Below are positions 6,714 to 64,000 of a stretch of DNA of 64,000 nucleotides, piece by piece (positions within the stretch are counted from its first letter, which is position 1; each line of letters starts with the position of its first letter). The position numbers were made by a program, and so were the translations under genes. Below the pieces are notes generated by a model that searched no databases, was not told the origin of the DNA, and worked only from the letters and a program-made list of their open reading frames with translations. The DNA lies in NCBI GenBank assembly GCA_965205015.1, contig OZ242029.1:5152001-5216000 (forward strand), written 5' to 3'. This stretch comes from Candidatus Poribacteria bacterium (GTDB taxonomy: Bacteria > Poribacteria > WGA-4E > WGA-3G).

Positions 6714-6803
6714 CGCAGCCTGCAACAACGGAGCAGGCGGCTCGAACACGGAAAGCGTCAATTCATAAATCCCGTTACTTATCCGCAAGGTAAAATTAAA
6801 AAA
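6714..6803 (+). repeat. Start-codon-abutting dispersed element, copy A (upstream of hflC)
   Basis: CGCAGCCTGC-AACAACGGA-GCAGGCGG + 42 nt + CCGCAAGGTAAAATTAAAAAA-ATG. Homologous to copies at 46400, 60301 and 63208. Confidence 0.8.
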
Positions 6804-7766
6804 ATGAAGTCAAAAATAGTTCTCATTCCCTTGATTGTTATTGCAGTTCTGGTGTTGCTGGTTGTGTCGGGTGTATTCTATACTGTCTATGAGGGTGAAC
6901 AGGTCGTAATTACCGAGTTCGGTCGTCCTGTGGGGCAACCGATCATCACTGCTGGGTTAAAAGTAAAAACACCGTTTATTCAGCAGGTGCACCGCTTTGA
7001 AAAGCGTGTGCTTGAATGGGACGGATCCCCTAACCAGATTCCGACAAAGGACAAGCGATTCATCTGGTTGGACACCACGGCGCGGTGGCGTATTAAAGAC
7101 GCGCTTAAGTTCTATCAAGCACTCGGAACGGAACAGTTTGCGCAATCGCGTTTGGATGACATTATCGATTCTGCGGCGCGTGATTTAGTGACAGCGCAAC
7201 TCCTGATTGAAGTCGTGCGGGATTCAAATCGGGTGTTAGCGCTCGATTTGGAAGTCCTTGAAGGAGAGGAGGGACAGACGGGTGAACCGTTGGAAGAGAT
7301 TCAGATTGGTAGGGAACAGATTACGCGCATGATCCTGGAGAAGGTGCAAGAGACCGTTCCGCAATTCGGCATTGAACTCGTCGATGTTCAGATAAAACGA
7401 ATTAACTATGTAGACGAGGTCCGCAAGAAAGTCTTTGACCAAATGATTTCGGAACGTCAACGGATCTCTGAGAAATACAAATCCGAGGGTGAAGGCGAAG
7501 CCGCTGACATCATGGGGCAGAAGCAGAAAGAGTTAGAACGGATCCAATCTGAGGCGTATAAGGAAGCCGAGCAGATAAAAGGCGACGCAGACGCGCAAGC
7601 CATCCAGATTTATGCCGAAGCACACGGTCAGGATCCGGAGTTTTTCGCTTTTATCCAAACGCTTGAAACCTATCGTCAGACGACCAACGAGAGCACGAAA
7701 CTCATCTTGACGACGGATAGCGACCTCTATCGGTATCTCAAAAGCAGCGAATCGCTTCGACGTTAA
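6804..7766 (+). CDS. hflC: FtsH protease modulator HflC
   Basis: TM + SPFH domain; FEKRVLEWDG, DVQIKRI, MISERQRI, DPEFFAFIQTLETY. Confidence 0.95.
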   Translation: MKSKIVLIPLIVIAVLVLLVVSGVFYTVYEGEQVVITEFGRPVGQPIITAGLKVKTPFIQQVHRFEKRVLEWDGSPNQIPTKDKRFIWLDTTARWRIKDALKFYQALGTEQFAQSRLDDIIDSAARDLVTAQLLIEVVRDSNRVLALDLEVLEGEEGQTGEPLEEIQIGREQITRMILEKVQETVPQFGIELVDVQIKRINYVDEVRKKVFDQMISERQRISEKYKSEGEGEAADIMGQKQKELERIQSEAYKEAEQIKGDADAQAIQIYAEAHGQDPEFFAFIQTLETYRQTTNESTKLILTTDSDLYRYLKSSESLRR

Positions 7767-7771
7767 GCCTC

Positions 7772-9661
7772 GTGAACCGTCAACTCTCGCCTCTCAGTTT
7801 GAAAGCGGTTTGCATCGGGCTCCTGCTAATTCCAGCGAATGCGATGTGGCAGATGATGGGGCTGCGGTGGGACATCGCGCACATGTCGATGATCTCGCTG
7901 CTCTATAACACGATTACATTGCTGTTCGTGCTGACGATTGTGAACCGCTTCACGAGAAAATATTCGCCGCATCTCTCGCTTTCCACTGCCGAACTCCTGA
8001 CGATCTATGTCATGTTGTGCCTTTCGACCGCTATCGGGGGGCACATGTGCGTGCAGATTCTCCTCCCGATTATTAGTTACGCCTTCGCTTATGCCACACC
8101 GGAGAACGATTGGCAGTCCCTGTTTTGGCACTATGTCCCCTCATGGACCTCGGTCACCGATAAACGCGGACTCGCCAATTTTTTCGATGGGGGTTCCACG
8201 TTCTATCCGCACTTCGAGGCGTGGCGCACCCCTTTGTTGTGGTGGGGACTCTTTCTCGCAGCACTCTTTTCGGTGATGCTCAGTATCAACTTCATCTTCC
8301 GAAGGCAGTGGACGGAAAATGAGAAGTTGAGTTATCCGCTAATCCAATTGCCACTGGCGATGGCGAATCCGAGGAGCGGGTTCTTCCGTAGCAAGGCGAT
8401 GTGGATCGGGTTCGCTGTTGCGGCGGGTATCGATCTCCTCAACGGGATCAATTACCTGTTCCCGCAAGTGCCGCGACTCAGTGGGATCCGTGCGTATGAC
8501 ATCGCCGATTTCTTCACCGTCCGTCCATGGAACGCCATTACGTGGTTCCCGATTGGCATTTATCCATTTGCCGTTGGATTGGCGTTCTTCATGCCGTTGG
8601 AGCTGTCCTTTTCCTGTTGGTTCTTTTATCTGTATTGGCAGGCGTTCCGTGTGTTAGGAAGTGCCGTCGGTCTGTCGGCACCCTTCCCGTATGCGGCGGA
8701 GCAATCTTTTGGGGCATATCTCGGTATCGGTTTGGTGGCGGTGTGGAGCGCGCGCCGCTACTTAACCCAAGTGCTTCGAAGATTATTTGGTATGCAGTCT
8801 TCGTTTAAAGATCAGGACGAACCGATCTCTTACCGTGCGGCGGTGGTATGGATGCTGTTGAGCATGGTGTTCCTGGTTGGGTTCTGTTACAAACTCGGGA
8901 TGTCGTTGTGGGTCATCGCGACTTTCTTTGGACTCTTCTTCGGGTTGGCGACGGGGATTACACGGATGCGCGCCGAACTCGGTTCACCGGTTCACGACCA
9001 GCATTATGCGGGTCCCGATAGGATGATGTATTCAGTCTTCGGTGCGAAACGGCTCGGTGCGAGTAATCTGACGGGGTTGGCGTATCTCTACTTTTTCAAT
9101 CGTGCCTACGATTGCCTGTTGATGCCGCATCATCTGGAGGGTTTGAAGATAGCCGAGCGCGCTGACATCGAAAACAAGACCTTCGCGAAGGCGGTGATTG
9201 TTGCGATCGGTGTCAGCATCGTCGCGACGATCTGGGCATATCTGCATGTCTCGTATCAGGACGGGGTCTATACGGCGTGGGCTGGCAGAGAGACGTTCAG
9301 TCGGCTCGGTAGGCGGCTCGTCCAACCTGCGGGTCCCGATACTGCAGTGCTGAGTGCAGTGAGTGTTGGGACAGTAATGGCGATTCTCTTGGCTTTTCTA
9401 CGGGGACGGTGGATGTGGATGCCGTTCCATCCGGCGGGTTATGCCGTCACCAGCACCTTCACGATGAATTTCTTCTGGTTCTCGCTCCTTGTGAGTTTCA
9501 TTCTGAAATGGATTATTACCAAACACGGTGGCATCGGTGGTTTTCGGAGGGCGGCACCCTTTTTCCTCGGTCTCGTGTTGGGTGAGTTCGTCGTGACGAC
9601 CTTCTGGGGCACGGTGGCGATTCTGTTTCGGGTGGAGACCTACATTACGATTAATTTGTGA
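7772..9661 (+). CDS. Multi-pass membrane protein, DUF6785/DUF6784-like (putative transporter)
   Basis: Many hydrophobic helices. Motifs RRQWTENEKLSYP, RMRAELG, PFHPAGYA and FFLGLVLGE are shared with the paralog at 40963. Confidence 0.75.
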   Translation: MNRQLSPLSLKAVCIGLLLIPANAMWQMMGLRWDIAHMSMISLLYNTITLLFVLTIVNRFTRKYSPHLSLSTAELLTIYVMLCLSTAIGGHMCVQILLPIISYAFAYATPENDWQSLFWHYVPSWTSVTDKRGLANFFDGGSTFYPHFEAWRTPLLWWGLFLAALFSVMLSINFIFRRQWTENEKLSYPLIQLPLAMANPRSGFFRSKAMWIGFAVAAGIDLLNGINYLFPQVPRLSGIRAYDIADFFTVRPWNAITWFPIGIYPFAVGLAFFMPLELSFSCWFFYLYWQAFRVLGSAVGLSAPFPYAAEQSFGAYLGIGLVAVWSARRYLTQVLRRLFGMQSSFKDQDEPISYRAAVVWMLLSMVFLVGFCYKLGMSLWVIATFFGLFFGLATGITRMRAELGSPVHDQHYAGPDRMMYSVFGAKRLGASNLTGLAYLYFFNRAYDCLLMPHHLEGLKIAERADIENKTFAKAVIVAIGVSIVATIWAYLHVSYQDGVYTAWAGRETFSRLGRRLVQPAGPDTAVLSAVSVGTVMAILLAFLRGRWMWMPFHPAGYAVTSTFTMNFFWFSLLVSFILKWIITKHGGIGGFRRAAPFFLGLVLGEFVVTTFWGTVAILFRVETYITINL

Positions 9662-9748
9662 TACCACTGACGGCAGCGTGCCACTGACATTTTCCTTGAC
9701 ATCCGAAAATCAACATGCTTTACTATAAGTAGAAAAAAGGGAGTCATC

Positions 9749-10225
9749 ATGAAAACTGTTTTGCTTTTCATACTATTCTGTGCACTCGCTCTACCGGCTC
9801 TCGGTGAATTAACCGATGCCGATCTGGATAAAATTCGCTTGATTGTCCAAGAAGAAATCAAGAAGGAGACCACTTCATTAAAAACGGAGTTTAAAAACGA
9901 GATTGCTACAACTAACGAAAAAATTGATGGATTAGATGAACGTCTGCGAACCGTAGAAGCGGATGTTTCGGAAATCAAGGGTTATCAAACAGGGCACGAA
10001 TCTGGCACAGAGACAAAGATAAGTTGGATTATTGCCATTACTTCAATTGTAGCTGCGGTTGTTGCCTTTGGTGCCCTAATTGCGAATCAAATGAAAAAAG
10101 ACTCACCCTTAGAGACACTCTCAAAGGTAATAGTAGATTTAAGCGAAAAGAAATCATCTACTGCTGAAGTTGAGAAAGATGACATAGAGAACACAATCAC
10201 CGGGCAGGTTCCTCCGCAACAATAG
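9749..10225 (+). CDS. Signal-peptide, coiled-coil and TM hypothetical protein
   Basis: Good RBS (AAGGGAG); signal peptide ALPALG; heptad-rich region; one TM helix (ISWIIAITSIVAAVVAFGALIA). Confidence 0.75.
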   Translation: MKTVLLFILFCALALPALGELTDADLDKIRLIVQEEIKKETTSLKTEFKNEIATTNEKIDGLDERLRTVEADVSEIKGYQTGHESGTETKISWIIAITSIVAAVVAFGALIANQMKKDSPLETLSKVIVDLSEKKSSTAEVEKDDIENTITGQVPPQQ

Positions 10226-10338
10226 CGGATACCGATGTCTCCCCCGCGATCATTGCCTCTACCACCTTTGATAGTGATTCTTGTTTCTTGCCTCCTTCCG
10301 GCTGAAGAGGATGTCAATATAGGAACTTGGACGTGGTC

Positions 10339-10881
10339 ATGAAAGTTTTGGTCGGTTCTGAAAATCCAGTGAAAATTCAGAGCGTGCGGGACGGTTTTTT
10401 AACATTTTTCGAACACGTAGAGGTCGAAGGTATATCCGTTGATACGGGTGTTCCGCATCAACCTATGAATGATGAGACATTTGAGGGTGCCAAAAATCGC
10501 GCCGAGAACATCAAGCGCATCAATGATCAGCAGAACCTCGACGCGACGTTTTTTGTCGGAATTGAAGGCGGCGTTCTTCAACTGCAGGATAGGTGGTTTA
10601 GTGTGAATGTCGTTTATATTTTAGATCAACAGAATCGAGACAGCTTTGCCACAACGGGACTTTATGAATTGCCCAGTGCGCTATCGAAGGAACTTTTGAT
10701 GAAAAAAGACTTAGGACATGCGATTGCTGTTCTTGCCAATGATAGCTTCACTGCACGCGAGCGCGGCACTGTTGGATTTCTGACAGATGGTAAGATTGAT
10801 AGGTTCCAAAATCAGGTCCAAGGCGTCACTTTAGCATTAATCCCTTTTCTTAATGACCATCTTTATTTTCCTTCTTCCTGA
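10339..10881 (+). CDS. yjjX: Inosine/xanthosine triphosphatase (non-canonical NTPase, DUF84)
   Basis: VGSENPVKI, GVPHQPM, ETFEGAKNRA and VGIEGG motifs. Confidence 0.88.
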   Translation: MKVLVGSENPVKIQSVRDGFLTFFEHVEVEGISVDTGVPHQPMNDETFEGAKNRAENIKRINDQQNLDATFFVGIEGGVLQLQDRWFSVNVVYILDQQNRDSFATTGLYELPSALSKELLMKKDLGHAIAVLANDSFTARERGTVGFLTDGKIDRFQNQVQGVTLALIPFLNDHLYFPSS

Positions 10882-10972
10882 TAGGCGGCACGGGTTTTGA
10901 GGGAAGGTAGAACGGTAGGCGAGGTTAGGAAACCTCGCCAGCGAAGGGTGTGGCGCACTGCCCACGAGCGAT

Positions 10973-12052
10973 TTAATCTATTTCCCATTCGTTCAAACCG
11001 AGTGGCACAGGATCAGGCCGTTCCGTCGTGCTTTCAATAAGGACGTGTTCACCGGTTTCCGAGGATTTATCAAATGCGAGCATCACCTCAAGCACATGGT
11101 ATGCCAATGTTCCGTTTGCGCGGTGTGTGCGTCCTGAACGGATAGCGGATACCATGTCAATCACTCCGATCATCCGAGCATTGTTCGGATAAGGGATTTC
11201 CACCTGTTCCCAATCGCCGCCTGCGGGACAGACATTTACGGGACCCCCAAATCCGTTCGGATCGGGGACGGTCATTGAGCCGGTTTCGCCGTAGATTTCG
11301 ATGCAGGGTAAACTCTGTCGCCACATATCGAAACTCATGATTGTCGTGACGATCGTCCCGTTTTCAAATTCCAGCGTACCTGTGAGATGCGTTGTAATTT
11401 TGACAGGGATTTTCATGCCATTTAACGCTTCACTCGTTGCGATCCGTTCCGCAAACCCCTTGCCCGTAATCGCGGCGACACGCTTGACGGGACCGAGGAG
11501 GTTGACGAGGGCTGTCATATAGTAGGGTCCCATATCCAGCATCGGACCCCCACCGATGTCGTAAAAAAACGCAGGATTCGGGTGCCAGCCTTCGGGCCCG
11601 TGTCCACACATGAACGCACTCCCGGCAATAGGTCTCCCAATTTTCCCAGAATCCAATGTTTGCCTTGATGTTTGGATACCTGCACCGAGGAAGGTGTCGG
11701 GGGCTGAACCGACGCGGCGTCCTTTTTCTGCGGCGGTATCAATCAGTTGTTTTCCGCTCTCGGTGTCCACGCCGAGCGGTTTTTCGCTGTAGACGTGTTT
11801 ACCTGATTCTAAGACTTGCAAGCCGACATCTACGTGCGCTCTCGGAATCGTGAGATTCACGACGAGTTCGATCTCATCATCAGCGAGCAATTCGTCAACG
11901 GTGCGTGCCTCGCAGTTGTATTTCTCGGCTTGTGCGTGTGCGGCTTCCATTCGGAGGTCGGCACAGGCTTTGATTTCTAAGATGTCAGTTTTTCGGGCGC
12001 CCTCAAAATAGGCACCACTGATGACGCCACACCCAATAATTCCGATTTTCAT
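10973..12052 (-). CDS. Gfo/Idh/MocA family oxidoreductase
   Basis: IGIIGCG Rossmann fold, HVYSEKP, GGGPMLDMGPYY. Confidence 0.95.
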   Translation of the reverse strand: MKIGIIGCGVISGAYFEGARKTDILEIKACADLRMEAAHAQAEKYNCEARTVDELLADDEIELVVNLTIPRAHVDVGLQVLESGKHVYSEKPLGVDTESGKQLIDTAAEKGRRVGSAPDTFLGAGIQTSRQTLDSGKIGRPIAGSAFMCGHGPEGWHPNPAFFYDIGGGPMLDMGPYYMTALVNLLGPVKRVAAITGKGFAERIATSEALNGMKIPVKITTHLTGTLEFENGTIVTTIMSFDMWRQSLPCIEIYGETGSMTVPDPNGFGGPVNVCPAGGDWEQVEIPYPNNARMIGVIDMVSAIRSGRTHRANGTLAYHVLEVMLAFDKSSETGEHVLIESTTERPDPVPLGLNEWEID

Positions 12053-12177
12053 TTTTTAGTATTACCTTTCAGGGGCTTTAGTACAGGTATGATTCTCCAG
12101 TGCGGTTAGAAACCGCCCCTACTGGGCTTGGGAAATCGGATTGATATAGTTCAATCAATCTCCCATTCCTTAGAATT

Positions 12178-12299
12178 CAGGACTTACGCACAATTGGCTT
12201 CTATGCCAAAATTGAGGTGATATTCCCGAAGAAAGCGCAATAAATTGCGCTACTATGAACCAAAGACGGCACAAAAACAGGGAAACTGCGTAAGTCCTA
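12178..12299. mobile_element. MITE-like element with AGGACTTACGCA terminal inverted repeats and a possible 6-bp AGAATT target duplication
   Basis: AGGACTTACGCA ... TGCGTAAGTCCT; AGAATT at 12172-12177 and 12300-12305; internal AGCGCAAT-AA-ATTGCGCT hairpin. A lone half occurs near 33341. Confidence 0.6.
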
Positions 12300-12304
12300 A
12301 GAAT

Positions 12305-12421
12305 TATAGTAAAGTTTAGAATTAATTAGACACTTTAAAGAGGCGAGGATACAATCCTCGCCAGCGGCGGAGAGGATTGTTTCGCTAAGCAACTGTCTAC
12401 ATATTTTTCGACTTTACTATA
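12305..12421. mobile_element. TA-flanked MITE (IS630/mariner-like ends), copy 1
   Basis: TATAGTAAAGT...ACTTTACTATA; ~26-bp imperfect TIR; internal GGCGAGG..CCTCGCC hairpin. Second copy at 13213. Confidence 0.65.
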
Positions 12422-12474
12422 AAAGTAGTAGGCACACGCTGTGTGCCGCAACATATTCATCTCCTAACTGCGAT

Positions 12475-13146
12475 CTAACTTGGCAAAAATACAGCAACAA
12501 ACGTTGTATCAAGACTAATTCTGAATAGCCAAATGCTGAGTGCTACGAAAAGAGCTTTGGTTTTACTGACTTCTGCGAAGATATGGATACCGATTGTTAG
12601 GACAAAAACATACCATACAGCTACCGGGTTTACGTAGGCAAGAAACATTAAAAGGTGTTTATTTTGGAGGGATCCCGCCAACAGGTGCAACCCTGGAATA
12701 ACTCTTGCGTCTATTGTTGTATGGATTTCTTCAATATCTCTAAAAACTGGGAGTAGTCCTGCATTCACAAGAAATGTCATTGTCCGAATCAGCATGATAT
12801 GGAAAAAGGCTGCGCAGATATGTTTGAATTTTATGGCACTCTTTATCTTTACTATTTTGGCTGTGAGCGTGAGAACGACACTCAATAAAATTGCCATTAA
12901 GATCGTGTAAGCCATCGAAAATACCGTAATAGATACAACAGAGAGTGTTTTGCTATATGACGGGGTATCAACGGCGCGCACAGCGAGAAGTTTCTGCGTA
13001 TATGGCAGAAGTGTCCACGCTAATATAAAAGAAAGGATACAATAGATCGTGAATACAGTTACCCACTTTGGCTCGGATTTCAGGCGTGTAAACGCTGCCG
13101 TGGGGTTTATAATAATGTCAACGACGTTTTTTAAGCTATCTTTCAT
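12475..13146 (-). CDS. YIP1-family membrane protein
   Basis: IIINPTAAFTRLK..P.W N-terminal Yip1 motif; ~5 TM helices; NP...WY...L.IG motif. Confidence 0.8.
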   Translation of the reverse strand: MKDSLKNVVDIIINPTAAFTRLKSEPKWVTVFTIYCILSFILAWTLLPYTQKLLAVRAVDTPSYSKTLSVVSITVFSMAYTILMAILLSVVLTLTAKIVKIKSAIKFKHICAAFFHIMLIRTMTFLVNAGLLPVFRDIEEIHTTIDARVIPGLHLLAGSLQNKHLLMFLAYVNPVAVWYVFVLTIGIHIFAEVSKTKALFVALSIWLFRISLDTTFVAVFLPS

Positions 13147-13212
13147 AGCGTAGTAACTTCGGGGGTAGGTATCTAAAATTCAAAGATAGAAAAGATTGGT
13201 AAATTTCCCATT

Positions 13213-13627: not shown

Positions 13628-13644
13628 TTTTTTCCTATGAACTC

Positions 13645-15636
<1,992 letters not shown>

Positions 15637-15807: not shown

Positions 15808-17167
15808 GTCACTTACCCCCATTTTTTTCTGAAGGTTTGTGGTGAAAGGTTTTTGTTGTAAAAAGTGTGAGAAAGTCAGTGGGTTTATGATAAAATACCT
15901 CCTTACGGCAACCGTTTGTAATCGAGTTTACAAAACATGTAAGGAGGTATTTTATGAAAAAGAGATACCCAAAACGGGTAAATCCAGAAACAATGATAGC
16001 ACGTTTTGGAGAAATCTTCAAGTCTGTTGGTATGAAAAAACCGGTTTTTCGGAATCTGGTGTTGGTCTTGATAGCGATCAGTGTTGCCCCGACGTTTCGG
16101 ATCAATGAAATTGCGTCGCGTTTGTCGCTCGTCGTCAAGCGGGAAAAGTCGAAACAGAAAAGGTTTCTGCGTTTCCTTGACACCCCGTTGCCTGTGGATG
16201 CGCTGAAACGTGCTTGGTTTGTGTCGGTTGTAGGTTGGTTTTCCAAGGATGCCAACGCTCATCTGTATTTGCTCGTTGATGAGACGTCTCTGATTGCCGG
16301 GTGGAAAGCACTTGTTGTTTCGATCCCGTTTCGGCATCGTGCGATCCCTGTCTTTTGGTTCATCTATAGCGATCAACAGCTTCACGAGGGTATCTATAAG
16401 AGTCATAATGAAATCATCCAATACTTCTGTGTTCATGTTTATCAAGAGGCTTTAGGGGTCGTGTCGCGGCATCAACAACGACCTGTTCTGGTGTTTGACC
16501 GTGGTTTTGGGCGTGCGCGATACGTCATCAAGTTTCTCAAGGCACGGGATATTGCGTTCGTGATGCGTGTTGCGAGGCATGTCGGTATCAGGCATGATGG
16601 GAGTCTGAAGAAACTTGATGACCTTGAAGCGGGCTGGTATCCGTATATCCTTTATCAGTCGCAGGAGCAGATACCGCTTCAACTTTATATCCTCAGAGAC
16701 GGTGCCTTTAAAGACCCGATGTATCTTATCTCAAATCGCCTCAGTGGACATCAGATACATCACTGCTACAAAAGACGCATGCAGATTGAACACGGGTTCC
16801 GAGATATAAAGTCGTGCTTCGGCTTTGGCAAACTCGTCTTGAAAAAACCGACACAAACGCGTCTGGATGTTCTCTGGCTGTGTGCCTGCTTGGCTTATGG
16901 ATTGGTGTTTATCAGTTATGAGAAGGTCGCCTCTACACACTGGCAGAAGGCACATAATAGTAATAACAGAAAAACTTTTTCTGTTATTACTATTATCAAA
17001 CGCGTGCTCACCGACTTATGGAACCAACATTTTCTCATCTCCTTTTTCACGCAGATACATTCCAGGGGCGATCCGCCTTGGGAAACCCTTGGAAACTGAC
17101 TTTCTCGCATACAAACCTGATGGCATCAACTACAATCTACTCTCGAAAAAAAATGGGGGTAAGTGAC
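15808..17167 (+). mobile_element. IS4-family insertion sequence, copy 1 (1360 bp, 21-bp TIR, 9-bp TSD GTCAAAAAG)
   Basis: GTCACTTACCCCCATTTTTTT at both ends in inverted orientation; direct repeat at 15799-15807 and 17168-17176. Confidence 0.93.
15954..17099 (+). CDS. IS4-family DDE transposase
   Basis: LLVDET, FDRGF and the YREK signature YKRRMQIEHGFRDIK. Confidence 0.93.
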   Translation: MKKRYPKRVNPETMIARFGEIFKSVGMKKPVFRNLVLVLIAISVAPTFRINEIASRLSLVVKREKSKQKRFLRFLDTPLPVDALKRAWFVSVVGWFSKDANAHLYLLVDETSLIAGWKALVVSIPFRHRAIPVFWFIYSDQQLHEGIYKSHNEIIQYFCVHVYQEALGVVSRHQQRPVLVFDRGFGRARYVIKFLKARDIAFVMRVARHVGIRHDGSLKKLDDLEAGWYPYILYQSQEQIPLQLYILRDGAFKDPMYLISNRLSGHQIHHCYKRRMQIEHGFRDIKSCFGFGKLVLKKPTQTRLDVLWLCACLAYGLVFISYEKVASTHWQKAHNSNNRKTFSVITIIKRVLTDLWNQHFLISFFTQIHSRGDPPWETLGN

Positions 17168-30834: not shown

Positions 30835-32196
30835 GTCACTTACCCCCATTTTTTTTCGAGAGTAGATTGTAGTTGATGTAGTCAGGTTTTTCTGTGAGAA
30901 AGTCAGTCAGTGAGTGGGTCCGAAAAGTGGATCCCCTCTGGCACCTATCTCGGTGAAAAAGGAGATAAGAAAGTGTTGGTTCCATAAGTCGGTGAGCACG
31001 CGTTTGATAATAGTAATAACAGAAAAAGTTTTTCTGTTATTACTATTATATGCCCTCTGCCAATGCGTAGAGGCGACCTTCTCGTAACTGATAAACAGCA
31101 ATCCATAAGCGAGGCAGGCACATAACCAAAGGACCTCCAGACGCGCTTGTGTCGGTTTTTTCAAGACGAGTTTACCAAATCCGAAGCACGACTTTATATC
31201 TCGAAACCCGTGTTCAATCTGCATGCGGCGTTTGTAGCAGTGATGTATCTGATGTCCACTGAGGCGATTGGAGATAAGATACATCGGGTCTTTGAAGGTC
31301 TCATCTCTGAGGATATAGAGTTGAAGCGGTATCTGCTCCTGCGCCTGATAAAGGATATGCCGATACCAGCCCGCTTCGAGGTCATCAAGTTTCTTCAGAC
31401 TCCCATCATGCCGGATACCGACATTTCTCGCAACACGCATCACGAACGGGATATCCCGTGCCTTGAGAAACTTGATGACGTATCGCGCACGCCCAAAACC
31501 ACGGTCAAACACCAGAACAGGTCGTTGTTGATGCCGCGACACCACCCCTAAAGCCTCTTGATAAACATGGACACAGAAGTATTGGATAATCTCATTATGA
31601 CTCTTATAGATACCCTCGTGAAGCTGGTGATCGCTATAGATGAACCAAAAGACAGGGATCGCACGATGCCGAAACGGGATCGAAACAACAAGGGCTTTCC
31701 ACCCGGCAATCAGAGACGTCTCATCAACGAGCAAATACAGATGAGCACCCGCATCCTTGAAAAACCAACCCACAACCGACACGAACCACGCTTCTTTGAG
31801 CGCATCAATCGGCAGTGGGGTGTCAAGGAAACGCAGAAACCTTTTCTGTTTCGACTTCTCCCGCTTGACGACGAGCGACAAACGCGACGCAACTTCATTG
31901 ATCCGAAACGTCGGGGCAACACTGATCGCTATCAAGACCAATACCAGATTCCGAAAAACCGGTTTTTTCATACCAACAGACTTGAAGATTTCTCCAAAAC
32001 GTGTTATCATCGTTTCTGGATTTACCCGTTTTGGGTATCTCTTTTTCATAAAATACCTCCTTACATGTTTTGTAAAATGCGTTTACAAACAGTTGCTGTA
32101 AGGAGGTATTTTATCATAAACCCACTGAGTTTCTCACACTTTTTACAACTAAAACCTTTCACCACAAACCTTCAGAAAAAAATGGGGGTAAGTGAC
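30835..32196 (-). mobile_element. IS4-family insertion sequence, copy 2 (1362 bp, 11-bp TSD TCGCATAAAAA)
   Basis: Same TIRs as copy 1; direct repeat at 30824-30834 and 32197-32207. Confidence 0.93.
30907..32049 (-). CDS. IS4-family DDE transposase (diverged paralog of 15954-17099)
   Basis: Near-identical protein; differs mainly at scattered sites and the C-terminus. Confidence 0.93.
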   Translation of the reverse strand: MKKRYPKRVNPETMITRFGEIFKSVGMKKPVFRNLVLVLIAISVAPTFRINEVASRLSLVVKREKSKQKRFLRFLDTPLPIDALKEAWFVSVVGWFFKDAGAHLYLLVDETSLIAGWKALVVSIPFRHRAIPVFWFIYSDHQLHEGIYKSHNEIIQYFCVHVYQEALGVVSRHQQRPVLVFDRGFGRARYVIKFLKARDIPFVMRVARNVGIRHDGSLKKLDDLEAGWYRHILYQAQEQIPLQLYILRDETFKDPMYLISNRLSGHQIHHCYKRRMQIEHGFRDIKSCFGFGKLVLKKPTQARLEVLWLCACLAYGLLFISYEKVASTHWQRAYNSNNRKTFSVITIIKRVLTDLWNQHFLISFFTEIGARGDPLFGPTH

Positions 32197-46358: not shown

Positions 46359-46387
46359 TTGACAACATCCGTCTAAAGTATTAAGAT
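46359..46387 (+). promoter_or_regulatory. sigma70-type promoter TTGACA-17-TAAGAT
   Basis: Read directly; lies immediately upstream of element copy D. Confidence 0.6.
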
Positions 46388-46399: not shown

Positions 46400-46518
46400 G
46401 TAGCCTTCAACAACGGCACAGGGTTTTTGCTTGGGTATTTCTGCGAATTTCTTCAGATTTAAGGGACGCATTTGATAGTTCTAACGGACGTTGTTTAACC
46501 ACAAGGAATAACTAAAAA
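46400..46518 (+). repeat. Start-codon-abutting dispersed element, copy D (diverged; internal cassette inverted relative to copy C)
   Basis: GTAGCCTTCAACAACGG...GTTTTTGCTTGGGTATTTCTGCG...42 nt...CCACAAGGAATAACTAAAAA-ATG. Confidence 0.72.
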
Positions 46519-56660: not shown

Positions 56661-56697
56661 ACCTATCTCCTGAAAAGTACTGAATATGCTTTTCACA

Positions 56698-57784: not shown

Positions 57785-57796
57785 ATGGTTCCACGC

Positions 57797-58657
57797 ATGG
57801 CGAAAAATAATTCAGAGACTTCACACACACCACATCGCGATGCCACCTATACATTAGGACGCACCTCACACGAAACAACGCGTCTCATGGAACAATCAAG
57901 AATCTATGGGGCGTCGACGCAACGTCTCTGTAGGCGAGCCGGTATAACGGAAGGGATGCGAATCCTTGAGATCGGTAGTGGGGCTGGTGATGTCGCCTTT
58001 ATGCTTGCTGAACTTGTCGGACCCACGGGACATGTCATTGGTGTAGATGTCAATGCCACAATTCTGGACACCGCACGCCAACGAGCAACCGATGCAGGCA
58101 TGCGGAACGTGGAATTTATTGCCGGCGATGCGCGGATGCTGACTTTCGCCGACCAATTTGATGCGATTGTTGGACGGTTTGTGTTGATGTATATGGCGGA
58201 TCCGAGGGAGGCATTCGCGACGCTCATAACCCATTTAAAGCCGGGCGGTATTGCCGCGTTTCAAGAGCCAGAATACACGCTCTATCCTGCGGTTTTACAT
58301 CCCGATACGCCGCTCATGAACCAACTGATTCAATGGATTTTGGAGGTGTTTGAACATTCAGGTGCACATCTTGACATGGGCTTTGGGCTGTATCGTGCTT
58401 TTGTTGATGCAGGTTTGCCGCCACCAATGATGCATCTTGAATCGCCTATCGGTGCCGCCGAAACTTGGGCAGGTTACCGTTATATGGCAACTATCTTTCA
58501 GAGTCTTCTGCCGCTCTTAGAGAAATACGGGCTTGCGACTGCAGAGCAGGTCGATGTGGAGACATTAGCCGCGCGGATCCGAGAAGAGGTTCTCGTATCG
58601 AAACGGCCGTTTTTCTTGCCGTTGCATATAACCGCACATGCGATACTTCCAACCTGA
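57797..58657 (+). CDS. Class I SAM-dependent methyltransferase, copy 2 (tandem paralog)
   Basis: ILEIGSGAGD, FDAIVGRFVL; colinear with copy 1. Confidence 0.92.
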   Translation: MAKNNSETSHTPHRDATYTLGRTSHETTRLMEQSRIYGASTQRLCRRAGITEGMRILEIGSGAGDVAFMLAELVGPTGHVIGVDVNATILDTARQRATDAGMRNVEFIAGDARMLTFADQFDAIVGRFVLMYMADPREAFATLITHLKPGGIAAFQEPEYTLYPAVLHPDTPLMNQLIQWILEVFEHSGAHLDMGFGLYRAFVDAGLPPPMMHLESPIGAAETWAGYRYMATIFQSLLPLLEKYGLATAEQVDVETLAARIREEVLVSKRPFFLPLHITAHAILPT

Positions 58658-58707
58658 AATTAAGGAACAGGTTGCGGGTTAAAGCCTCAAAAAATTGTGA
58701 TTTTGGG

Positions 58708-58736
58708 TTGATATACATATTGGAATGTGATATAAT
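58708..58736 (+). promoter_or_regulatory. rpsF operon promoter TTGATA-17-TATAAT (extended -10)
   Basis: Read directly. Confidence 0.7.
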
Positions 58737-58836
58737 TGTATTAACTAAAATTAAAGAATGGAATTCCATCTAATCTGTAATCATCCTTTTGATTCAATGG
58801 CGATTCACAGGTATCAGGTGGGGTTTACGTAATTAA

Positions 58837-58891
58837 TCTCTGCTCCCTGTTTTTGTTTCAAAAGCGGTGGAGCCATTAGTCCGAAGAGAGG
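58837..58891 (+). ncRNA. S6:S18 ribosomal protein leader
   Basis: CTCT-GCTCC-CTGTTTT...AAAAGCGG-T-GGAGC-CATTAGT-CCG-AAGAGAGG: a hairpin with an unpaired CCG just before the paired SD, directly upstream of rpsF. Matches the known S6:S18 leader architecture. Confidence 0.75.
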
Positions 58892-58900
58892 CATAAAAAT

Positions 58901-59335
58901 TTGAATCCTTACGAATTGTTGCTGATCATTACGCCCGACCACGATGAAAACGAAGCAGAGGCTCTTACGAATCAAGTAAGGGGCATTATTGAAGGTGGCG
59001 GGACTCTCCTGAAGGTTGATCCTTGGGGAAAAAAACGACTCGCTTATCCCATCCGGAAACGGAATGAAGGCTATTATGTGCTCTACATTTTTGAGTGCGT
59101 CCCGAGTTTCGTTGCCGAGTTAAATCAATCCTTGCATGTTATTGAAGCGATTTTGCGGTATATGATCGTTCAATGCGAGGATGATATTGAGAAGTTGAAA
59201 GCTGAACTCACCCCTGAGGCGGCCAAGGTCGAAGAATCAACGCCGGATACGGAATCAGCGTCGGGTGATAAGGCAGCGGCTGAAAATACAATAGATGATG
59301 ACGCAGCGGCTGAAGATACAACAGCGTCTGCCTGA
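58901..59335 (+). CDS. rpsF: 30S ribosomal protein S6 (TTG start, acidic tail)
   Basis: YELLLII.P, WGKKRLAYPI, EGYY, ILRYMIV. Confidence 0.97.
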   Translation: MNPYELLLIITPDHDENEAEALTNQVRGIIEGGGTLLKVDPWGKKRLAYPIRKRNEGYYVLYIFECVPSFVAELNQSLHVIEAILRYMIVQCEDDIEKLKAELTPEAAKVEESTPDTESASGDKAAAENTIDDDAAAEDTTASA

Positions 59336-59420
59336 AAGAAGCGTCATCCAAATTTTAAACCAACTTTTGGCGTGTAGGCTCCCTCAAAAGGTCTGAGCCT
59401 ACGCATAAAAAGGAGCAACC

Positions 59421-59891
59421 ATGGCAAGTTACAACAAGGTTATCCTGATGGGAAATCTCACTCGGGATCCTGAAGTGAAATTCCTGCCGAGTGGAACAGC
59501 CATCGCGAATTTTGGATTGGCTATGAATGAAAGTTACACCGATCAGCAGACGGGTGAACGAAAAGACATTCCCTGTTTTGTTGATATAGAAGCATGGGGT
59601 AGGCAGGCGGAAATAGTGGGTGAATATTTCAGTAAGGGCAGACCGATTCTGATTGAAGGTTCCCTCAGATATGATTCCTGGGAAGCTGAAGATGGCACGA
59701 AGCGGAACCGTCTGAAAGTCCGCCTGCAGCGGTTTCAATTTGTTGGGAGACGTGAGGACAACGAGGCGGGCGGCGGCTACACCGATGCCCAACCCGCAGC
59801 TGCATCAGGACAGGCGGCATCTTATCAGGAGGCACCTGCTCCCACTGTGAGTGACGCGTCTTCCACAACAGAGGACGATATTCCGTTTTAA
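59421..59891 (+). CDS. ssb: Single-stranded DNA-binding protein
   Basis: NKVILMGNLTRDPE; C-terminal DDIPF. Confidence 0.98.
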   Translation: MASYNKVILMGNLTRDPEVKFLPSGTAIANFGLAMNESYTDQQTGERKDIPCFVDIEAWGRQAEIVGEYFSKGRPILIEGSLRYDSWEAEDGTKRNRLKVRLQRFQFVGRREDNEAGGGYTDAQPAAASGQAASYQEAPAPTVSDASSTTEDDIPF

Positions 59892-59899
59892 GTAAGCAA

Positions 59900-59993
59900 T
59901 AGCGGTCGGTGATCAGCAGTCGGCAGTCAGTAAGAGAGGTTTGTTAGATGAAAATCTCCCTTCTGATAGCCGAAGGCTGACAGCCGAATGCCG
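59900..59993. repeat. Heptamer-based long hairpin element
   Basis: (TCGG/TCAG)-containing heptamers, AAGAGAGG...CTCCCTT, then complementary CTGA/CCGA heptamers. Confidence 0.6.
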
Positions 59994-60016
59994 CAAAAAA
60001 AAGGAACAGAATTGAT

Positions 60017-60217
60017 ATGGCATTCCGTCGCAGGCAGCGCTATCATAAAATAGAATCTTTCGATTACAAAGATGTTGATATGCTGCGAAAGTTTATTAAT
60101 GAACGTGGCAAGATTGTGAGTCGCCGAGTCACTGGACTATCGGCGAAGCAACAACGTATGGTAACACGGGCAGTCAAGCGTGCCCGTAGTATGGCACTAT
60201 TGCCGTTTACGCGATAG
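60017..60217 (+). CDS. rpsR: 30S ribosomal protein S18 (no zinc cysteines)
   Basis: [26 protein letters not shown]....AVKRAR.MALLPF. Confidence 0.97.
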
Positions 60218-60300
60218 CGGTAGGGATTCAGACACGGACAATGGGTGTCCCTATGAAGGATGGATTTTTTTTCGAAAAATCCAAACTGAAAACTTTTCTA

Positions 60301-60391
60301 CCGTAGCCCGTAATGAAATGGAGGGCGGATCTCAGGAACGCACGTAAAATATCCAAATTCACGTCGTTTCTCCGCAAGGTATAATTAAAAA
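60301..60391 (+). repeat. Start-codon-abutting dispersed element, copy B (upstream of rplI)
   Basis: CCGTAGCCC...GGGCGG + 43 nt + CCGCAAGGTATAATTAAAAA-ATG. Confidence 0.8.
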
Positions 60392-60838
60392 ATGGAAGTC
60401 ATTCTAAAAGAAAGTGTTGAAGGTCTCGGGCTACCGGGCGATGTACTGAAGGTTGCAGATGGCTACGCACGTAACTATCTGCTTCCCATGCAGTTAGCCG
60501 TGCATGCCACGGAACGAAACCGTCGACACTTAGAGCACCAGAAACGGGTCATTGATCATCAAGAGACGAAGAATAAAGAACGGGCACGTGAAATCGCCGG
60601 ACAGATGGCGGGGGTCACATGTACACTGAGCAGACGTGCTGGTGAAAATGATCGTCTCTTCGGGTCAGTTACCTCTATGGATATCGCAGAAAATTTACGA
60701 ACGCAGGGGTTCGATTTGGAACGACGGTTTTTTGAACTCGCAGAGCCGATTCGTGAACTCGGTGTCTTCATGGTACCTATCAAATTGTATACAGACGTTG
60801 TCGTCGAACTCCGCGTTGTCGTTGAGCGTGAAGCGTAA
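60392..60838 (+). CDS. rplI: 50S ribosomal protein L9
   Basis: MEVIL, GLG..GD...V.DGYARNYLLP, LFGSVT. Confidence 0.98.
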   Translation: MEVILKESVEGLGLPGDVLKVADGYARNYLLPMQLAVHATERNRRHLEHQKRVIDHQETKNKERAREIAGQMAGVTCTLSRRAGENDRLFGSVTSMDIAENLRTQGFDLERRFFELAEPIRELGVFMVPIKLYTDVVVELRVVVEREA

Positions 60839-60840
60839 TT

Positions 60841-62172
60841 ATGCAGGCACAACTGGTTGACTCCCTCTCTGACAAGGAAGCTGAACAAGCCGTCTTGGGC
60901 GCGATGATGACCGAGAAATCAGTTATTCCGCCAGTAATCACCAAGCTCGGCCAGACCGCTGATGTGTTTTTCACTGTAGACCATCAGTTGATCTATTCAG
61001 TGATCCTTGCTGTATATGACCGGGTTAGCAGTGCGGATCCCCTTCTTGTTGCTGATGAATTGAAACGGAGGGACCAGTTGAATCGCGCAGGGGGAACGGA
61101 GTACTTATACGAACTACAGGCGCCAATTGTAGAGACCGAGAGTACGGAGTTTTACGCAGATATCCTATATGAAAAGGCGACGCGCCGTCGATTAATTCGA
61201 GCGACCGCTGAGATTCGCGAGATGGCGTACGACGAAAGTGTAGAAATCGTTGAAGTGCTGAATCAATCACAGGAAGCGGTTTTTGATCTGAGTCAGTCAG
61301 ATACCCAACGCGGGTTTGTCGCTATCCACTCCTTACTCACAGAGAGTCTGAGTGCGGTTGAACGTTTGTATCACAAAAAGAGTAGATATTTAGGCGTGCC
61401 AACCGGTTTTATGGATTTTGACCATCTGACATCCGGGCTGCAACCCGGTAATCTTATTATCATTGCTGCTCGACCGAGCATGGGAAAAACGACCTTGGTG
61501 CTGAACATCGCACAAAACATCTCCCTTGAACAAAAGCGTCCCGTCGCCATTTTTAGTCTTGAGATGCCGTCCCAGGATATCGCTATGCGAATGTTAGCCA
61601 CCGAATCCCGAATTGATTTTAAACGGCTCCGAACCGGTAACTTCGGTGAAGAGCATTGGAGACCTTTGACCGAAAGCGCAAGTCGATTGGCAGAAGCCCC
61701 GGTCCTCATTAACGATAATCGGGGTCTTACCGTTCAAAGTTTACGCGCCGAGGGCCGACGCTTAAAAGGCGAACACAGCAATCTGGCACTCATTATCGTT
61801 GATTACCTGCAACTCTTGAGAGGGACGGGTAGATATCATTCGCGTGAACAGGAGATTTCTGAAATTTCACGCGCTTTGAAAATCCTTGCTTGGGAACTGA
61901 ATGTTCCGATTATCGCGTGTTCGCAATTGAGTCGTGAGATTGAGCGGCGTCCTGATAAACGTCCGCAACTTTCAGATTTACGGGAGTCCGGGGCAATCGA
62001 ACAGGATGCCGATCTCGTCGCCTTTTTACACCGGGATGATTATTACGAAGATGAAGATATCGCAGAGAGGGTTGAAGCCTTCATCATGATTAAGAAACAA
62101 CGGAATGGACCGACTGGCGTCGTCCCTCTCTTTTTTACAAAAAATCAGATGCGGTTTGAGAACCCCAGTTAG
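60841..62172 (+). CDS. dnaB: Replicative DNA helicase
   Basis: EAEQAVLG, AARPSMGKT, IVDYLQL, SQLSR, DLRESGAIEQDAD, KQRNGPTG. Confidence 0.98.
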   Translation: MQAQLVDSLSDKEAEQAVLGAMMTEKSVIPPVITKLGQTADVFFTVDHQLIYSVILAVYDRVSSADPLLVADELKRRDQLNRAGGTEYLYELQAPIVETESTEFYADILYEKATRRRLIRATAEIREMAYDESVEIVEVLNQSQEAVFDLSQSDTQRGFVAIHSLLTESLSAVERLYHKKSRYLGVPTGFMDFDHLTSGLQPGNLIIIAARPSMGKTTLVLNIAQNISLEQKRPVAIFSLEMPSQDIAMRMLATESRIDFKRLRTGNFGEEHWRPLTESASRLAEAPVLINDNRGLTVQSLRAEGRRLKGEHSNLALIIVDYLQLLRGTGRYHSREQEISEISRALKILAWELNVPIIACSQLSREIERRPDKRPQLSDLRESGAIEQDADLVAFLHRDDYYEDEDIAERVEAFIMIKKQRNGPTGVVPLFFTKNQMRFENPS

Positions 62173-62174
62173 AT

Positions 62175-62280
62175 GGCTGTCAGCACGCGACGCTTTCAGT
62201 TCGGTTTTCAGTTAAGAGGTATTTTGCCGAAATCAGAACCCTCTTTTAACCGATAACTGACAACTGACAACTGGTAACGA
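62175..62280. repeat. Heptamer-based long hairpin element
   Basis: TTTCAG..TTTTCAGTTAAGAGG...CCTCTTTTAACCGATAACTGACAACTGACAACTG. Confidence 0.6.
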
Positions 62281-62293
62281 TTACACTAAAAAT

Positions 62294-63118
62294 ATGGAGC
62301 AGCAGCCCACTATATACGAAGCCCCGGGTGGTTTCCGTGATTTGGTTAAGATCCGGTTGCACAACGTGCTTTCCGAGATAGGACACGCCTTTACGCTCTT
62401 TTTTCAAACCCTTATCCAAATTTTTCGTCCTCCCTTTCAGTTTGATCTGTTAGTTAAGCAGTTGTTGTTGATCGGCTTCAATTCTTTAGCGGTTGTTATT
62501 GTCTCTGGGTTTTTCACGGGAATGGTGTTGGGCGTTCAGGGATATATTCAACTCAAACCTTATGCGGTGGAAGGCTCGGTGGCGAGATTTGTCTGTGTCT
62601 CAGTCGTGAAGGAACTCGGGCCAATGATTACTGCGTTTGTGCTTGCCGGACGTATCGGTGCCTCAATTACTGCTGAACTTTCAACGATGAAGGTTACGGA
62701 GCAAATTGACGCACTTGAAGTGATGGGCACAAATCCTGTCAAATATCTGGTTGTGCCGCGGTTTCTCGCCTGTTCTATGATGTTGCCGACGCTTACGATC
62801 TATTCGACGTTTGCGGGCATTGCTGGCGGTTTCGTCGCTGTTGTTACGCTATTTGATGTAAATGGTTCCTTCTTTCTCTTGGAAGTACAGAAGAATCTTT
62901 TTGTCGGAAGTGTTCTGATTAGTTTGATTAAAGCGACTTCCTTCGGAATGGCGATTGCTGCGGTCGGTTGCTACAAGGGCTTTAGTATCTCGACGGCGGG
63001 TGGAGCAGAGGGGGTTGGAATTGCTACAACTGGCTCTGCTGTAATCTCTCTTATTGCAATTCTCGTTTTAGATTTTGTCTTGAATCATATACTCTTTAAC
63101 ATTTTGGGGTTGGTATAA
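62294..63118 (+). CDS. mlaE: MlaE-family ABC permease
   Basis: KELGPMITAFVLAGRIGASITAELSTMKVTEQIDALEVMG.NP..YLVVPR. Confidence 0.95.
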   Translation: MEQQPTIYEAPGGFRDLVKIRLHNVLSEIGHAFTLFFQTLIQIFRPPFQFDLLVKQLLLIGFNSLAVVIVSGFFTGMVLGVQGYIQLKPYAVEGSVARFVCVSVVKELGPMITAFVLAGRIGASITAELSTMKVTEQIDALEVMGTNPVKYLVVPRFLACSMMLPTLTIYSTFAGIAGGFVAVVTLFDVNGSFFLLEVQKNLFVGSVLISLIKATSFGMAIAAVGCYKGFSISTAGGAEGVGIATTGSAVISLIAILVLDFVLNHILFNILGLV

Positions 63119-63207
63119 TTAGCCGTCAGGCATCAGCCGTCGGTAAAGAGGTTTTCGCCTTATAAAGGTATAAAGGTTTCCTCAATGTATAATAAGAATA
63201 ATAAGAA

Positions 63208-63356
63208 CCGTAGCCTGCAACAATACGCAGAAATACCCAAGCAATACGCAGAAATGCCCAAGCAAAAACACCCCAAGCAAAAACACGCAGGCGGATATGA
63301 GCAACGCCCGTCAAAGTCCAAACGCACGCTGTGTCTCCGCAAGGTAAAATTAAAAG
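63208..63356 (+). repeat. Start-codon-abutting dispersed element, copy C (upstream of mlaF), with tandemly amplified loop cassette
   Basis: CCGTAGCCTGCAACAA...GCAGGCGG + 42 nt + CCGCAAGGTAAAATTAAAAG-ATG. Loop contains 21-bp and 15-bp tandem units. Confidence 0.8.
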
Positions 63357-64000
63357 ATGATTTCAATTAGGAATATCACAAAAAATTTTGGGGGCAAAAG
63401 CGTTTTAAATGGGTTAAGCCTCGAAATTCCGAGCGGTGAGACGCTTGTGATTATGGGACAGAGTGGGTGTGGTAAGAGTGTACTCCTCAAGATTATTACT
63501 GGATTAATGTCTGCGGATTCCGGTGAAATTTGGTTTGATGGAACGGAAATATCAAGCCTAAAAGGCAAAAAAATAAATAACCTCCGCCGAAGGATTGGAA
63601 TGTTATTTCAATCTGCTGCGCTTTTTGATTCGATGACCGTCGCGGAGAACGTCGCTTTTATGCTCGATCAGCATACAGATCTCAACAAGCGAGAGGTGCG
63701 TAAGGTTGTTGACGAGAAGCTCGGTCTTGTGGATTTAGAAGGGGTCCAAGACTTGCGTCCTGCTGAATTGAGTGGCGGGATGCGAAAACGGGTGGGACTC
63801 GCACGCGCCTTGGCGTTTGATCCAGAGGTTATTCTCTACGATGAACCCACGACCGGGCTTGACCCGGTTACCTGTACCGAAATCAATCAACTTATTCGAG
63901 ATCTCCATGAGAGGTTGCAAGTCACCTCCGTTGTGGTTACACATGATATGCACAGTGCCTTCAGTGTCGCGACCCGAATGGCGATGATTCACGAAGGTCG
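63357..64000 (+). CDS. mlaF: MlaF-like ABC ATP-binding protein (runs off the window end)
   Basis: My translation: MISIRNITKNFGGKSVL...GQSGCGKS (Walker A), FQSAALFDS, LSGGMRKRVGLARA, YDEPTTGLDP, VTHD. Confidence 0.92.
   Translation, partial: MISIRNITKNFGGKSVLNGLSLEIPSGETLVIMGQSGCGKSVLLKIITGLMSADSGEIWFDGTEISSLKGKKINNLRRRIGMLFQSAALFDSMTVAENVAFMLDQHTDLNKREVRKVVDEKLGLVDLEGVQDLRPAELSGGMRKRVGLARALAFDPEVILYDEPTTGLDPVTCTEINQLIRDLHERLQVTSVVVTHDMHSAFSVATRMAMIHEG

Follow-up and report, generated by a model that had tools for sequence, protein, structure and literature searches.

A Poribacteria repeat in register with gene starts: a candidate portable leader headed by a REP-like hairpin

What kind of sequence ends, base for base, at the start codons of unrelated genes? 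The question arises from a stretch of 64,000 nucleotides of a Candidatus Poribacteria bacterium (contig OZ242029.1, positions 5,152,001 to 5,216,000, forward strand; hereafter the window), in which four intergenic segments had been noticed before hflC, a hypothetical gene, rplI and mlaF. The original prediction held that they are copies of one dispersed element bringing its own ribosome-binding region, either a mobile element aimed at start codons or an undescribed cis-regulatory RNA. We found all four segments where it had placed them (copies A to D; Table 1), each starting with GTAG or GCAG and each with the architecture described: G[T/C]AGCC, a core, CC(G/A)CAAGG, 12-13 A/T bases and ATG. 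On balance, we lean towards regarding the element as an old mosaic repeat specific to Poribacteria, resembling repetitive extragenic palindromic sequences (REPs) and bacterial interspersed mosaic elements (BIMEs), which its hosts have kept as a portable cassette providing leader and translation initiation.

A canonical copy measures 88-92 nt and consists of a 5' hairpin tagged GTAG, a variable core of ~45 nt and an almost invariant 3' module made of CCGCAAGG followed by 11-13 A/T bases. An nhmmer profile built from 69 copies found exactly the four copies A to D in the window, and a search for the 3' motif (AAGG, A/T tail and ATG, with up to 3 mismatches) gave 5 matches compared with a mean of 0.02 in 100 shuffles. 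The four segments are indeed homologous copies of one element, and a partial fifth (copy E) had been overlooked. Missed by the nhmmer profile as well, copy E adjoins the ATG (12052-12050) of a GFO/IDH/MocA oxidoreductase gene (10973-12052, minus strand) and is preceded by a REP of another class, the family hairpin and core being missing there. Pfam families agree with the flanking genes that had been claimed: Band_7/Band_7 (hflK/hflC-like) at copy A, SSB-S18/L9-DnaB at copy C and MlaE/ABC ATPase at copy D; copy B lies between a divergent YchF gene and a 129-aa open reading frame (ORF). At copies A, C and D, 67-90 nt separate the stop of the upstream gene from the element. The tail of the window copies holds a TAA in frame with the ATG, and no ORF crosses the element. 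The predicted hairpins required revision. The stem of copy A is as proposed; GCCC/GGGC, which had been assigned to copy B, belongs to the rplI copy (C), the stem of copy B being degenerate; and copy D, said to have lost its 3' arm, retains it beyond a 69-nt loop.

We scanned one genome per species for exact matches to the 19-mer CCGCAAGGTAWAAYTAAAA. It occurs in at least 128 stretches, and 78 of 80 titles among the matches listed are Poribacteria; the other two listed are an untitled metagenome-assembled genome (MAG) with the full element and an Oscillospiraceae contig without the rest of the element. A slightly wider 19-mer was found in 62 of 150 sampled Poribacteria genomes, 14 of which hold 200-290 copies each (289 in genome G001), and a reversed control pattern gave 0 in all 150. 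Many copies genome-wide had been expected from the window, and this proved right. Judged by these matches, the family is specific to Poribacteria. For comparison we used five complete chromosomes of the phylum (G001-G005), which the window genes match at 76-92% identity. In 200 kb of G001 the nhmmer profile found 35 copies; the commonest hairpin word was followed by the 3' module in 14 of 14 cases, and all but 3 of 29 3' modules lay within profile hits, 2 of the 3 being tandem extras. The co-occurrence of hairpin words and 3' modules indicates that hairpin, core and 3' module form one unit, and since nearly all 3' modules sit in profile hits, the module is not a general native ribosome-binding site (RBS). 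No Rfam family matches the element: the window gave 0 matches at gathering score and chance-level hits (E >= 3) at copies C and D. A full-text literature search, with subscription papers and supplements outside its scope, found no paper on intergenic repeats of Poribacteria.

The copies proved strongly polar and in register with start codons, not random in placement or orientation. A start codon (ATG, GTG or TTG) of a long ORF lies 0-7 nt after the 19-mer in 51 of 145 exact copies, 27 of which have ATG at offset 1. Controls shifted upstream gave 1-3 of 142-143 (Fisher 1e-31; 7 of 570 upstream control positions), and controls shifted downstream gave 10-18 of 96-144 (Fisher 1e-10). The spacing from AAGG to the start codon was 12 nt in 30 copies, 11 nt in 6, 13 nt in 7 and 14 nt in 5. 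Among 144 classifiable copies, a start codon follows at 0-3 nt in 48, at 4-7 nt in 2 and at 8-40 nt in 24; in this last group the tail is often followed at once by a native AGGAG. Another copy or 3' module comes next in 21, an ORF on the other strand is met in 27, and 22 fall into none of these classes. In all, 95 of 144 copies point at a downstream gene or another copy, and 27 lie antisense after a gene. The profile set was polar as well: a co-oriented long ORF starts within 60 nt past the tail in 27 of 39 copies, compared with a divergent start near the hairpin in 2 of 39 (Fisher 3e-9). Of this set, 13 copies stand in register, 12 lie at 5-40 nt, 5 are in tandem, 3 meet a stop, 2 have an opposite-strand stop elsewhere and 4 are others. 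We scanned 33 proteins against Pfam, 28 of them products of the 51 ORFs in register and 5 from the window, and 28 of the 33 had families. Domains begin at residues 1-10 of the proteins encoded downstream of the element (L9_N 1-47 on residues 1-47, CstA 1-198 on residues 2-198), indicating that these are true N-termini. The scan also revealed that the downstream genes are functionally unrelated.

The claim that copies end at start codons held for these copies and missed a second context, as the tail is flush with opposite-strand stops in 23 of 144 copies. Nineteen of the 27 opposite-strand ORFs stop at the tail's TAA (as TTT TAA) and 4 stop 3-6 nt before the tail; 3 end in other frames and 1 is unplaceable. 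The frame of the tail TAA is used by 19 of the 22 ORFs that reach the tail, compared with an expected one third (binomial p = 4e-7). Pfam domains run to the profile end at the C-terminus in 16 of 22 opposite-strand ORFs, indicating that these are real genes. In 73 of 144 copies the tail lies flush with an ORF end, compared with 1 of 75 for the hairpin end (<=8 nt). This stop-codon habit is a previously unreported second context of the element.

Next, we examined the fold of the element. The stem behind (G)TAG covaries among copies (GCCTGC/GCAGGC, GCCC/GGGC, GTCC/GGAC, GCAC/GTGC and GCTT/AAGC). Hairpin cells are paired in 88.2% versus 78.1% in shuffles (0 of 500 reach it), a slid partner gives 32-51%, and double-sided changes occur at 5 of 6 hairpin pairs. 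T precedes AG in 72% of 74 copies. These results confirm the REP-like hairpin, GTAG tag and covariation included, that had been proposed. Because G-U and A-C exceptions are about equally frequent in the stem (6 and 5), the data do not discriminate between the two strands, or between RNA and single-stranded DNA, as what folds. The core is variable and falls into subfamilies; mean column identity is 66% over the whole alignment, invariant columns included. RNAalifold returned the hairpin and a closure of 2 bp (CC/GG) only, and CCGCAAGG is able to close as CC/GG around GCAA. A helix between the core ends is weakly supported (cognate -10.09 versus non-cognate -9.29 kcal/mol; 5 of 5000 permutations reach it), and the subfamilies differ in register. 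An alternative pairing of GCGG(A) with (T)CCGC, which had also been suggested, failed, with 0 double-sided changes and 78.6% of cells paired versus 79.0% in shuffles. The limits of the copies are sharp: similarity between copies starts 1-3 nt before AGCC and stops in the tail, and the 5' flanks are unconserved beyond ~9 nt. Hairpin loops and junctions often hold small inserted modules. In the rplI copy of G002, G004 and G005 (loci L129-L131), for example, an identical insert of ~48 nt splits the hairpin loop, and it is also present at locus L084.

How might translation start at a flush copy? The 3' end of the 16S rRNA carries a canonical anti-Shine-Dalgarno (anti-SD) sequence, and the other window genes have GGAGG- or AGGA-type sites 5-8 nt before ATG. 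In flush copies AAGG is the sole SD-like motif, in agreement with the claim that the element brings its own, and an open A/U tract follows; the A/T tail is predicted to be unpaired (pairing probability <=0.14). Together, AAGG and the open tract may constitute a plausible but weak initiation region. Some two thirds of the copies point towards the start of a following gene, and in roughly one third the tail stops 0-3 nt short of the start codon. At these flush copies the native SD region has been replaced, or displaced ~90-140 nt upstream. In the mechanism that we propose for the leader cassette, the 5' hairpin would head the leader, and translation would begin from the element's weak SD (AAGG, 11-14 nt upstream) together with the open, A/U-rich tail. 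Copies in the opposite orientation have their tail at a stop codon, which it often supplies, and their hairpin in the gene's 3' region, as is usual for classical REPs. The initiation role of AAGG and the tail, an action of the hairpin as RNA and the origin of the copies are inferences.

The 3' module might alternatively be a -10 element (TAWAAT) with transcription from the A of the ATG, giving leaderless mRNAs. In the modal class (30 of the 48 copies in register) TAWAAT does end 6 nt short of the ATG, and copy C matches 10/12 as TTCACG-16-TATAAT. However, 11 of 140 copies (7.9%) have a -35-like hexamer at 16-18 nt compared with 11.7% of random positions, there is no TG extension, and many copies lie inside operons or tandem arrays. 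RNA-library contigs, which show no ends or strand, cover copies, and one spans rpsR into the copy C hairpin; it speaks weakly against leaderless transcripts, DNA carry-over being possible. Copy B moreover has a promoter-like site of its own upstream (10/12 matches; 1 found versus 0.5 expected), from which copy B would be nearly the whole 5' untranslated region (UTR). Leaderless transcription is therefore very unlikely in our view. As general features, promoters were rejected both directly before the element, where 21 of 61 copies have a -10-like hexamer but 3 a good -35, and inside it, where -35-like hexamers are not enriched. Three further candidates were dismissed by eye: CsrA-type GGA sites (T and A both follow AAGG among the 19-mer matches listed), an integration host factor site (the consensus does not fit) and a likeness to 16S helix 45, which is superficial.

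A separate observation concerns a gene that follows the element without ATG, GTG or TTG at its conserved N-terminus (L055, L094, L125 and the G001 200-kb sample, 88068-88139). By eye, its N-terminus looks homocysteine methyltransferase-like, and its frame is open from an ATT inside the tail in four genomes; this ATT may be its start codon.

We then compared orthologous loci for empty sites. Genomes differ in the presence of the element at 5 of 6 loci on the start side and 4 of 6 on the stop side. The rpsR/rplI junction is filled in the window, G002, G004 and G005; G003 has the 3' module alone, and G001 lacks the element and has a native AGGA 8 nt before the same ATG. At the hflC junction the element or parts of it occur in all six genomes (full in G002, G004 and G005, partial in G001 and G003), and at the mlaF junction it occurs in five. 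Before a ClpB-like gene, three genomes have the element and two have GGAGG-N6-ATG, one of these two being ~95% identical to a filled genome. In one G001 gene, the element and 45 unique bases lie exactly between a native AGGA-N5 and the ATG, a clean insertion directly before the ATG that left the native AGGA ~137 nt upstream. Where orthologues lack the element, a native AGGA or GGAGG precedes the same ATG by 5-8 nt. At stop codons, two orthologues at empty sites already end TTT TAA or TTC TAA; GAA TAG was replaced in one gene, and the insertion lies 6 codons before the old stop in another.

Orthologous elements are 0.86-0.92 identical, compared with 0.67-0.76 at third codon positions and 0.92-0.96 at first and second positions, in 10 comparisons at 3 loci that are not independent of each other. 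Best paralogues reach 84-92% identity (three queries). Three genomes ~95% identical (BLAST average) differ over syntenic 100 kb by tandem copy number and internal deletions only, and no recent insertion was found among them in these 100 kb. From the paralogue identities, the syntenic stability and the conservation of orthologues, it follows that the family is old, constrained and of slow turnover. Such constraint bears on the view that the element is a neutral selfish repeat of the REP type, whose register reflects tolerated insertions only. The REP-like hairpin, the mosaic make-up with other small modules in the loop and the tandem amplification at locus L104 (7 copies) suit that view, but conservation above third codon positions does not, nor does the loss of native SDs where the element adjoins the ATG. 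Tolerance alone also fails to account for half of the copies lying <=7 nt from an ORF end versus 1 of 75 for the other terminus, and we regard neutrality as highly improbable. The array at L104 consists of head-to-tail copies of a 142-bp unit (the element and 50 nt of flank) before one gene, the last copy adjoining the ATG.

The same conservation would be expected of a cis-regulatory leader RNA, or its DNA, that is read by one trans-acting factor, so that hundreds of genes form one translational or stability regulon and the repeat nature merely reflects the spread of the site. Third codon positions evolve faster than the element over its entire length, core included, and the 200-290 exact 19-mers per genome contrast with canonical cores that vary far more. 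The covarying hairpin, an orientation fixed relative to the downstream gene and copy B as a predicted whole 5' UTR are also in keeping with a regulon, and the intact 3' module in antisense copies is easier to reconcile with a recognising factor than with a pure RBS role. On the other hand, the downstream genes have no common function, no Rfam family matches, the hairpin is the only conserved fold, ~19% of copies are unable to be leaders, and no candidate factor was identified. A regulon is thus a possibility to be reckoned with, though on the unlikely side.

Is the element mobile at present? An active, non-autonomous mobile element aimed at ORF boundaries and kept harmless by its own initiation region and stop codon would explain the sharp copy ends, the clean insertion before the ATG of the G001 gene, the varying presence at start- and stop-side loci, the contrast between a flush tail and a hairpin end that is hardly ever flush, and the biased use of the tail TAA. 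Moreover, 2 of 4 stop-side empty sites already end TTT TAA or TTC TAA; one of these two TTY TAA cases, however, encodes an Omp85 protein, and Omp85 proteins end in Phe anyway. The tail sequence was present in 0 of 4 start-side empty sites, which also share no fixed target word. No direct repeats indicative of target-site duplication were seen at the filled/empty junctions compared on either side, and no terminal inverted repeats (TIRs) were apparent by eye, the 5' word matching the complement of the 3' word at <=6/8 in one hairpin type and 4/8 in the other; target models based on duplication, TIRs, TTAA or TTA were rejected, as the flanks give no support. Best paralogues well short of identity, stability of the syntenic 100 kb and persistence of copies at orthologous sites across ~85% coding identity speak against present activity as well.

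A mobilising gene was sought among Y1 transposases (PF01797), which gave 27 matches in the five genomes; 20 were examined, the 7 others resembling those seen or scoring below the cut-off. Five of the 20 are IS200/IS605 copies (tnpA and tnpB) whose ends are unrelated to the element. The others are like REP-associated tyrosine transposases (RAYTs), of at least 6 kinds, each flanked by its own GTAGG-tagged REP. A search for a gene of this sort flanked by the element had been suggested, and none flanked by the GTAGCC hairpin was found at these 20 of 27 Y1 loci. Close inverted hairpin pairs (three pairs in G001) enclose ordinary metabolic genes, none of which could be linked to the element. With neither near-identical copies nor a clean recent insertion seen, the proposal of a mobile element that homes actively to start codons found no support, and we think such activity decidedly unlikely. 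In the RAYT-REP systems of related Poribacteria (loci L156-L172), the flanking hairpins sometimes form long tandem arrays.

Several points weigh against the host-kept leader cassette that we prefer. AAGG is a weak SD of 4 bp at the long end of usable spacings. RNAalifold shows no conserved structure beyond the hairpin, and the affinity to REPs is one of form only, no RAYT at the 20 Y1 loci examined being flanked by this hairpin. Furthermore, 27 of 144 copies with an intact 19-mer face the 3' end of an opposite-strand gene. Because a leader role is impossible in antisense copies, conservation of the 3' module does not come from initiation alone. The intact module in these copies argues that something beyond initiation keeps it, candidates being a recognising factor and a copying mechanism. 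In a bolder reading, the element would be a 'gene punctuation' cassette that propagates itself and targets ORF boundaries through a mechanism undescribed in bacteria, with a dedicated Poribacteria factor reading the 3' module. With no TIR, target duplication or known transposase, its A/T tail would be joined by a microhomology or template-switch type event; a standard leader would replace the native 5' UTR at starts, a stop codon would be supplied at ends, and, as a rough estimate, ~5-8% of genes would come under one translational control point. We consider this unlikely.

We also compared the element with known systems. Its closest known kind appears to be the Neisseria REP2 repeat, a contact-regulated upstream repeat, together with the inverted repeats (IR) of Borrelia plasmids. 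In the sections of PMC3184786 that treat it, REP2 is described as 23-26 copies of 120-150 bp without TIRs, with 5' stem-loops, a promoter, an RBS and ATG, lying directly upstream of unrelated ORFs; how it proliferated is posed there as a question. Like REP2 and the Borrelia IR in these descriptions, the Poribacteria element is dispersed and intergenic, lacks TIRs, lies immediately upstream of unrelated ORFs, carries an RBS and has stem-loops near its 5' end, read as shared 5' UTRs (PMC3184786). The original prediction was right that no Rfam family covers the element; as a kind it is not undescribed, since REP2 and the Borrelia IR, as presented in that source, already carry an RBS upstream of ORFs (PMC3184786). 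Compared by description only, it is unlike REP2 in its length (~90 nt), its several hundred copies and its lack of a -35, as well as in its GTAG-tagged hairpin and stop-codon context. Because copies without a gene lack the ATG, the ATG lies outside the repeat, unlike in REP2.

With REPs, BIMEs and REPINs, as the parts of PMC3733652 devoted to them portray these families, the element shares the GTAG tag and an imperfect, covarying palindrome, a high extragenic copy number, mosaic structure and long vertical persistence, and its antisense copies put the hairpin just downstream of a gene. REPs are characterised there as lying mainly downstream of genes, often in inverted pairs, and as flanking their RAYT (PMC3733652). 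The element differs in being a single, polar unit whose non-palindromic extension measures 65 nt, in pointing at gene starts in two thirds of its copies, and in flanking 0 of 20 examined Y1 genes, though at least 6 other REP classes flank their own RAYTs in these genomes. Mycobacterial interspersed repetitive units (MIRUs), in the account that PMC3184786 gives of them, are similar in measuring 40-100 bp, lying in operons, being co-transcribed and ending at start and stop codons; they also hold small ORFs overlapping the neighbouring genes and show short direct repeats at filled sites (PMC3184786). The present element, unlike MIRUs, has upstream genes that stop 67-90 nt before it, no crossing ORF and no direct repeats. 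IS200/IS605 elements resemble it in having no TIR, no target duplication, a hairpin near the end and one end at a fixed short context, but the ends of the 5 copies seen here are unrelated and no fixed target word occurs at start-side empty sites. Overall, the element appears to behave like a portable leader of the REP2 type with a head of the REP type.

If this holds true, several hundred genes of unrelated function, in a phylum of uncultured sponge symbionts, begin translation at one shared, transplanted leader, whereas comparable families on record (REP2 and the Borrelia IR) are small in the descriptions consulted. The element would be a natural system in which to study what a portable initiation region minimally needs, here a weak SD and an open A/U tract behind a 5' hairpin, and it poses the question of how a repeat becomes flush with start and stop codons. 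In practical terms, the repeat breaks short-read assemblies at gene starts and can mislead start-codon calling in Poribacteria MAGs.

Table 1. Positions of the element copies, their parts and other features in the window.
Feature	Position	Strand	Remarks
Copy A, hflK-like / hflC-like junction	6715..6803	+	nhmmer E 5e-16
Copy A hairpin arms	6718-6723 with 6733-6738	+	GCCTGC/GCAGGC
Copy A 3' module	6783-6790; tail 6791-6803	+	CCGCAAGG, then A/T tail; ATG 6804
Copy B, before 129-aa ORF without Pfam family	46400..46518	+	nhmmer E 1e-7
Copy B, inserted 25-nt module	46421-46445	+	follows degenerate stem
Copy B 3' module	46499-46506; tail 46507-46518	+	CCACAAGG, then tail; ATG 46519
Promoter-like TTGACA-17-TAAGAT	46359..46387	+	ends 12 nt upstream of copy B
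Copy C, rpsR / rplI junction	60303..60391	+	nhmmer E 2e-20
Copy C stem	60306-60309 with 60323-60326	+	GCCC/GGGC
Copy C 3' module	60372-60379; tail 60380-60391	+	CCGCAAGG, then tail; ATG 60392
Copy D, mlaE / mlaF-like junction	63210..63356	+	nhmmer E 2e-13 (63286-63355)
Copy D arms	63212-63217 with 63287-63292	+	GCCTGC with GCAGGC; 69-nt loop with tandem copies of small module
Copy D 3' module	63336-63343; tail to 63356	+	CCGCAAGG, then tail; ATG 63357
Copy E, partial	12053..12068	-	3' module-like AAGG and A/T tail
RAYT-associated REP, GTAGG-tagged hairpin	6673..6696	+	just upstream of copy A; same class flanks RAYT in L162 and L166
Second copy of the same RAYT-associated REP class	12100..12122	-	upstream of copy E
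~25-nt module, ~2.5 tandem copies	63226-63286		reverse complement
Hairpin GTAGGG...CCCTA	60218-60252		directly 3' of rpsR stop
381-aa ORF, first copy	15954-17099	+	
381-aa ORF, second copy	30907-32049	-	

Other features of the window deserve mention. The module of ~25 nt found in copies B and D occurs in or beside hairpin loops in either orientation, and it is also present in unrelated REP classes near RAYT genes (L162, L168 and L169); it looks like a small element targeting hairpin loops. The hairpin behind the rpsR stop is separate from the element and is also kept in G001. DNA short-read contigs terminate at copies (window 60329/60379 and 63233/63278), where depth rises 10-30 fold. Finally, the two copies of a 381-aa ORF have near-identical palindromic upstream regions and a strong GGAGG site, and the pair is probably an insertion sequence.

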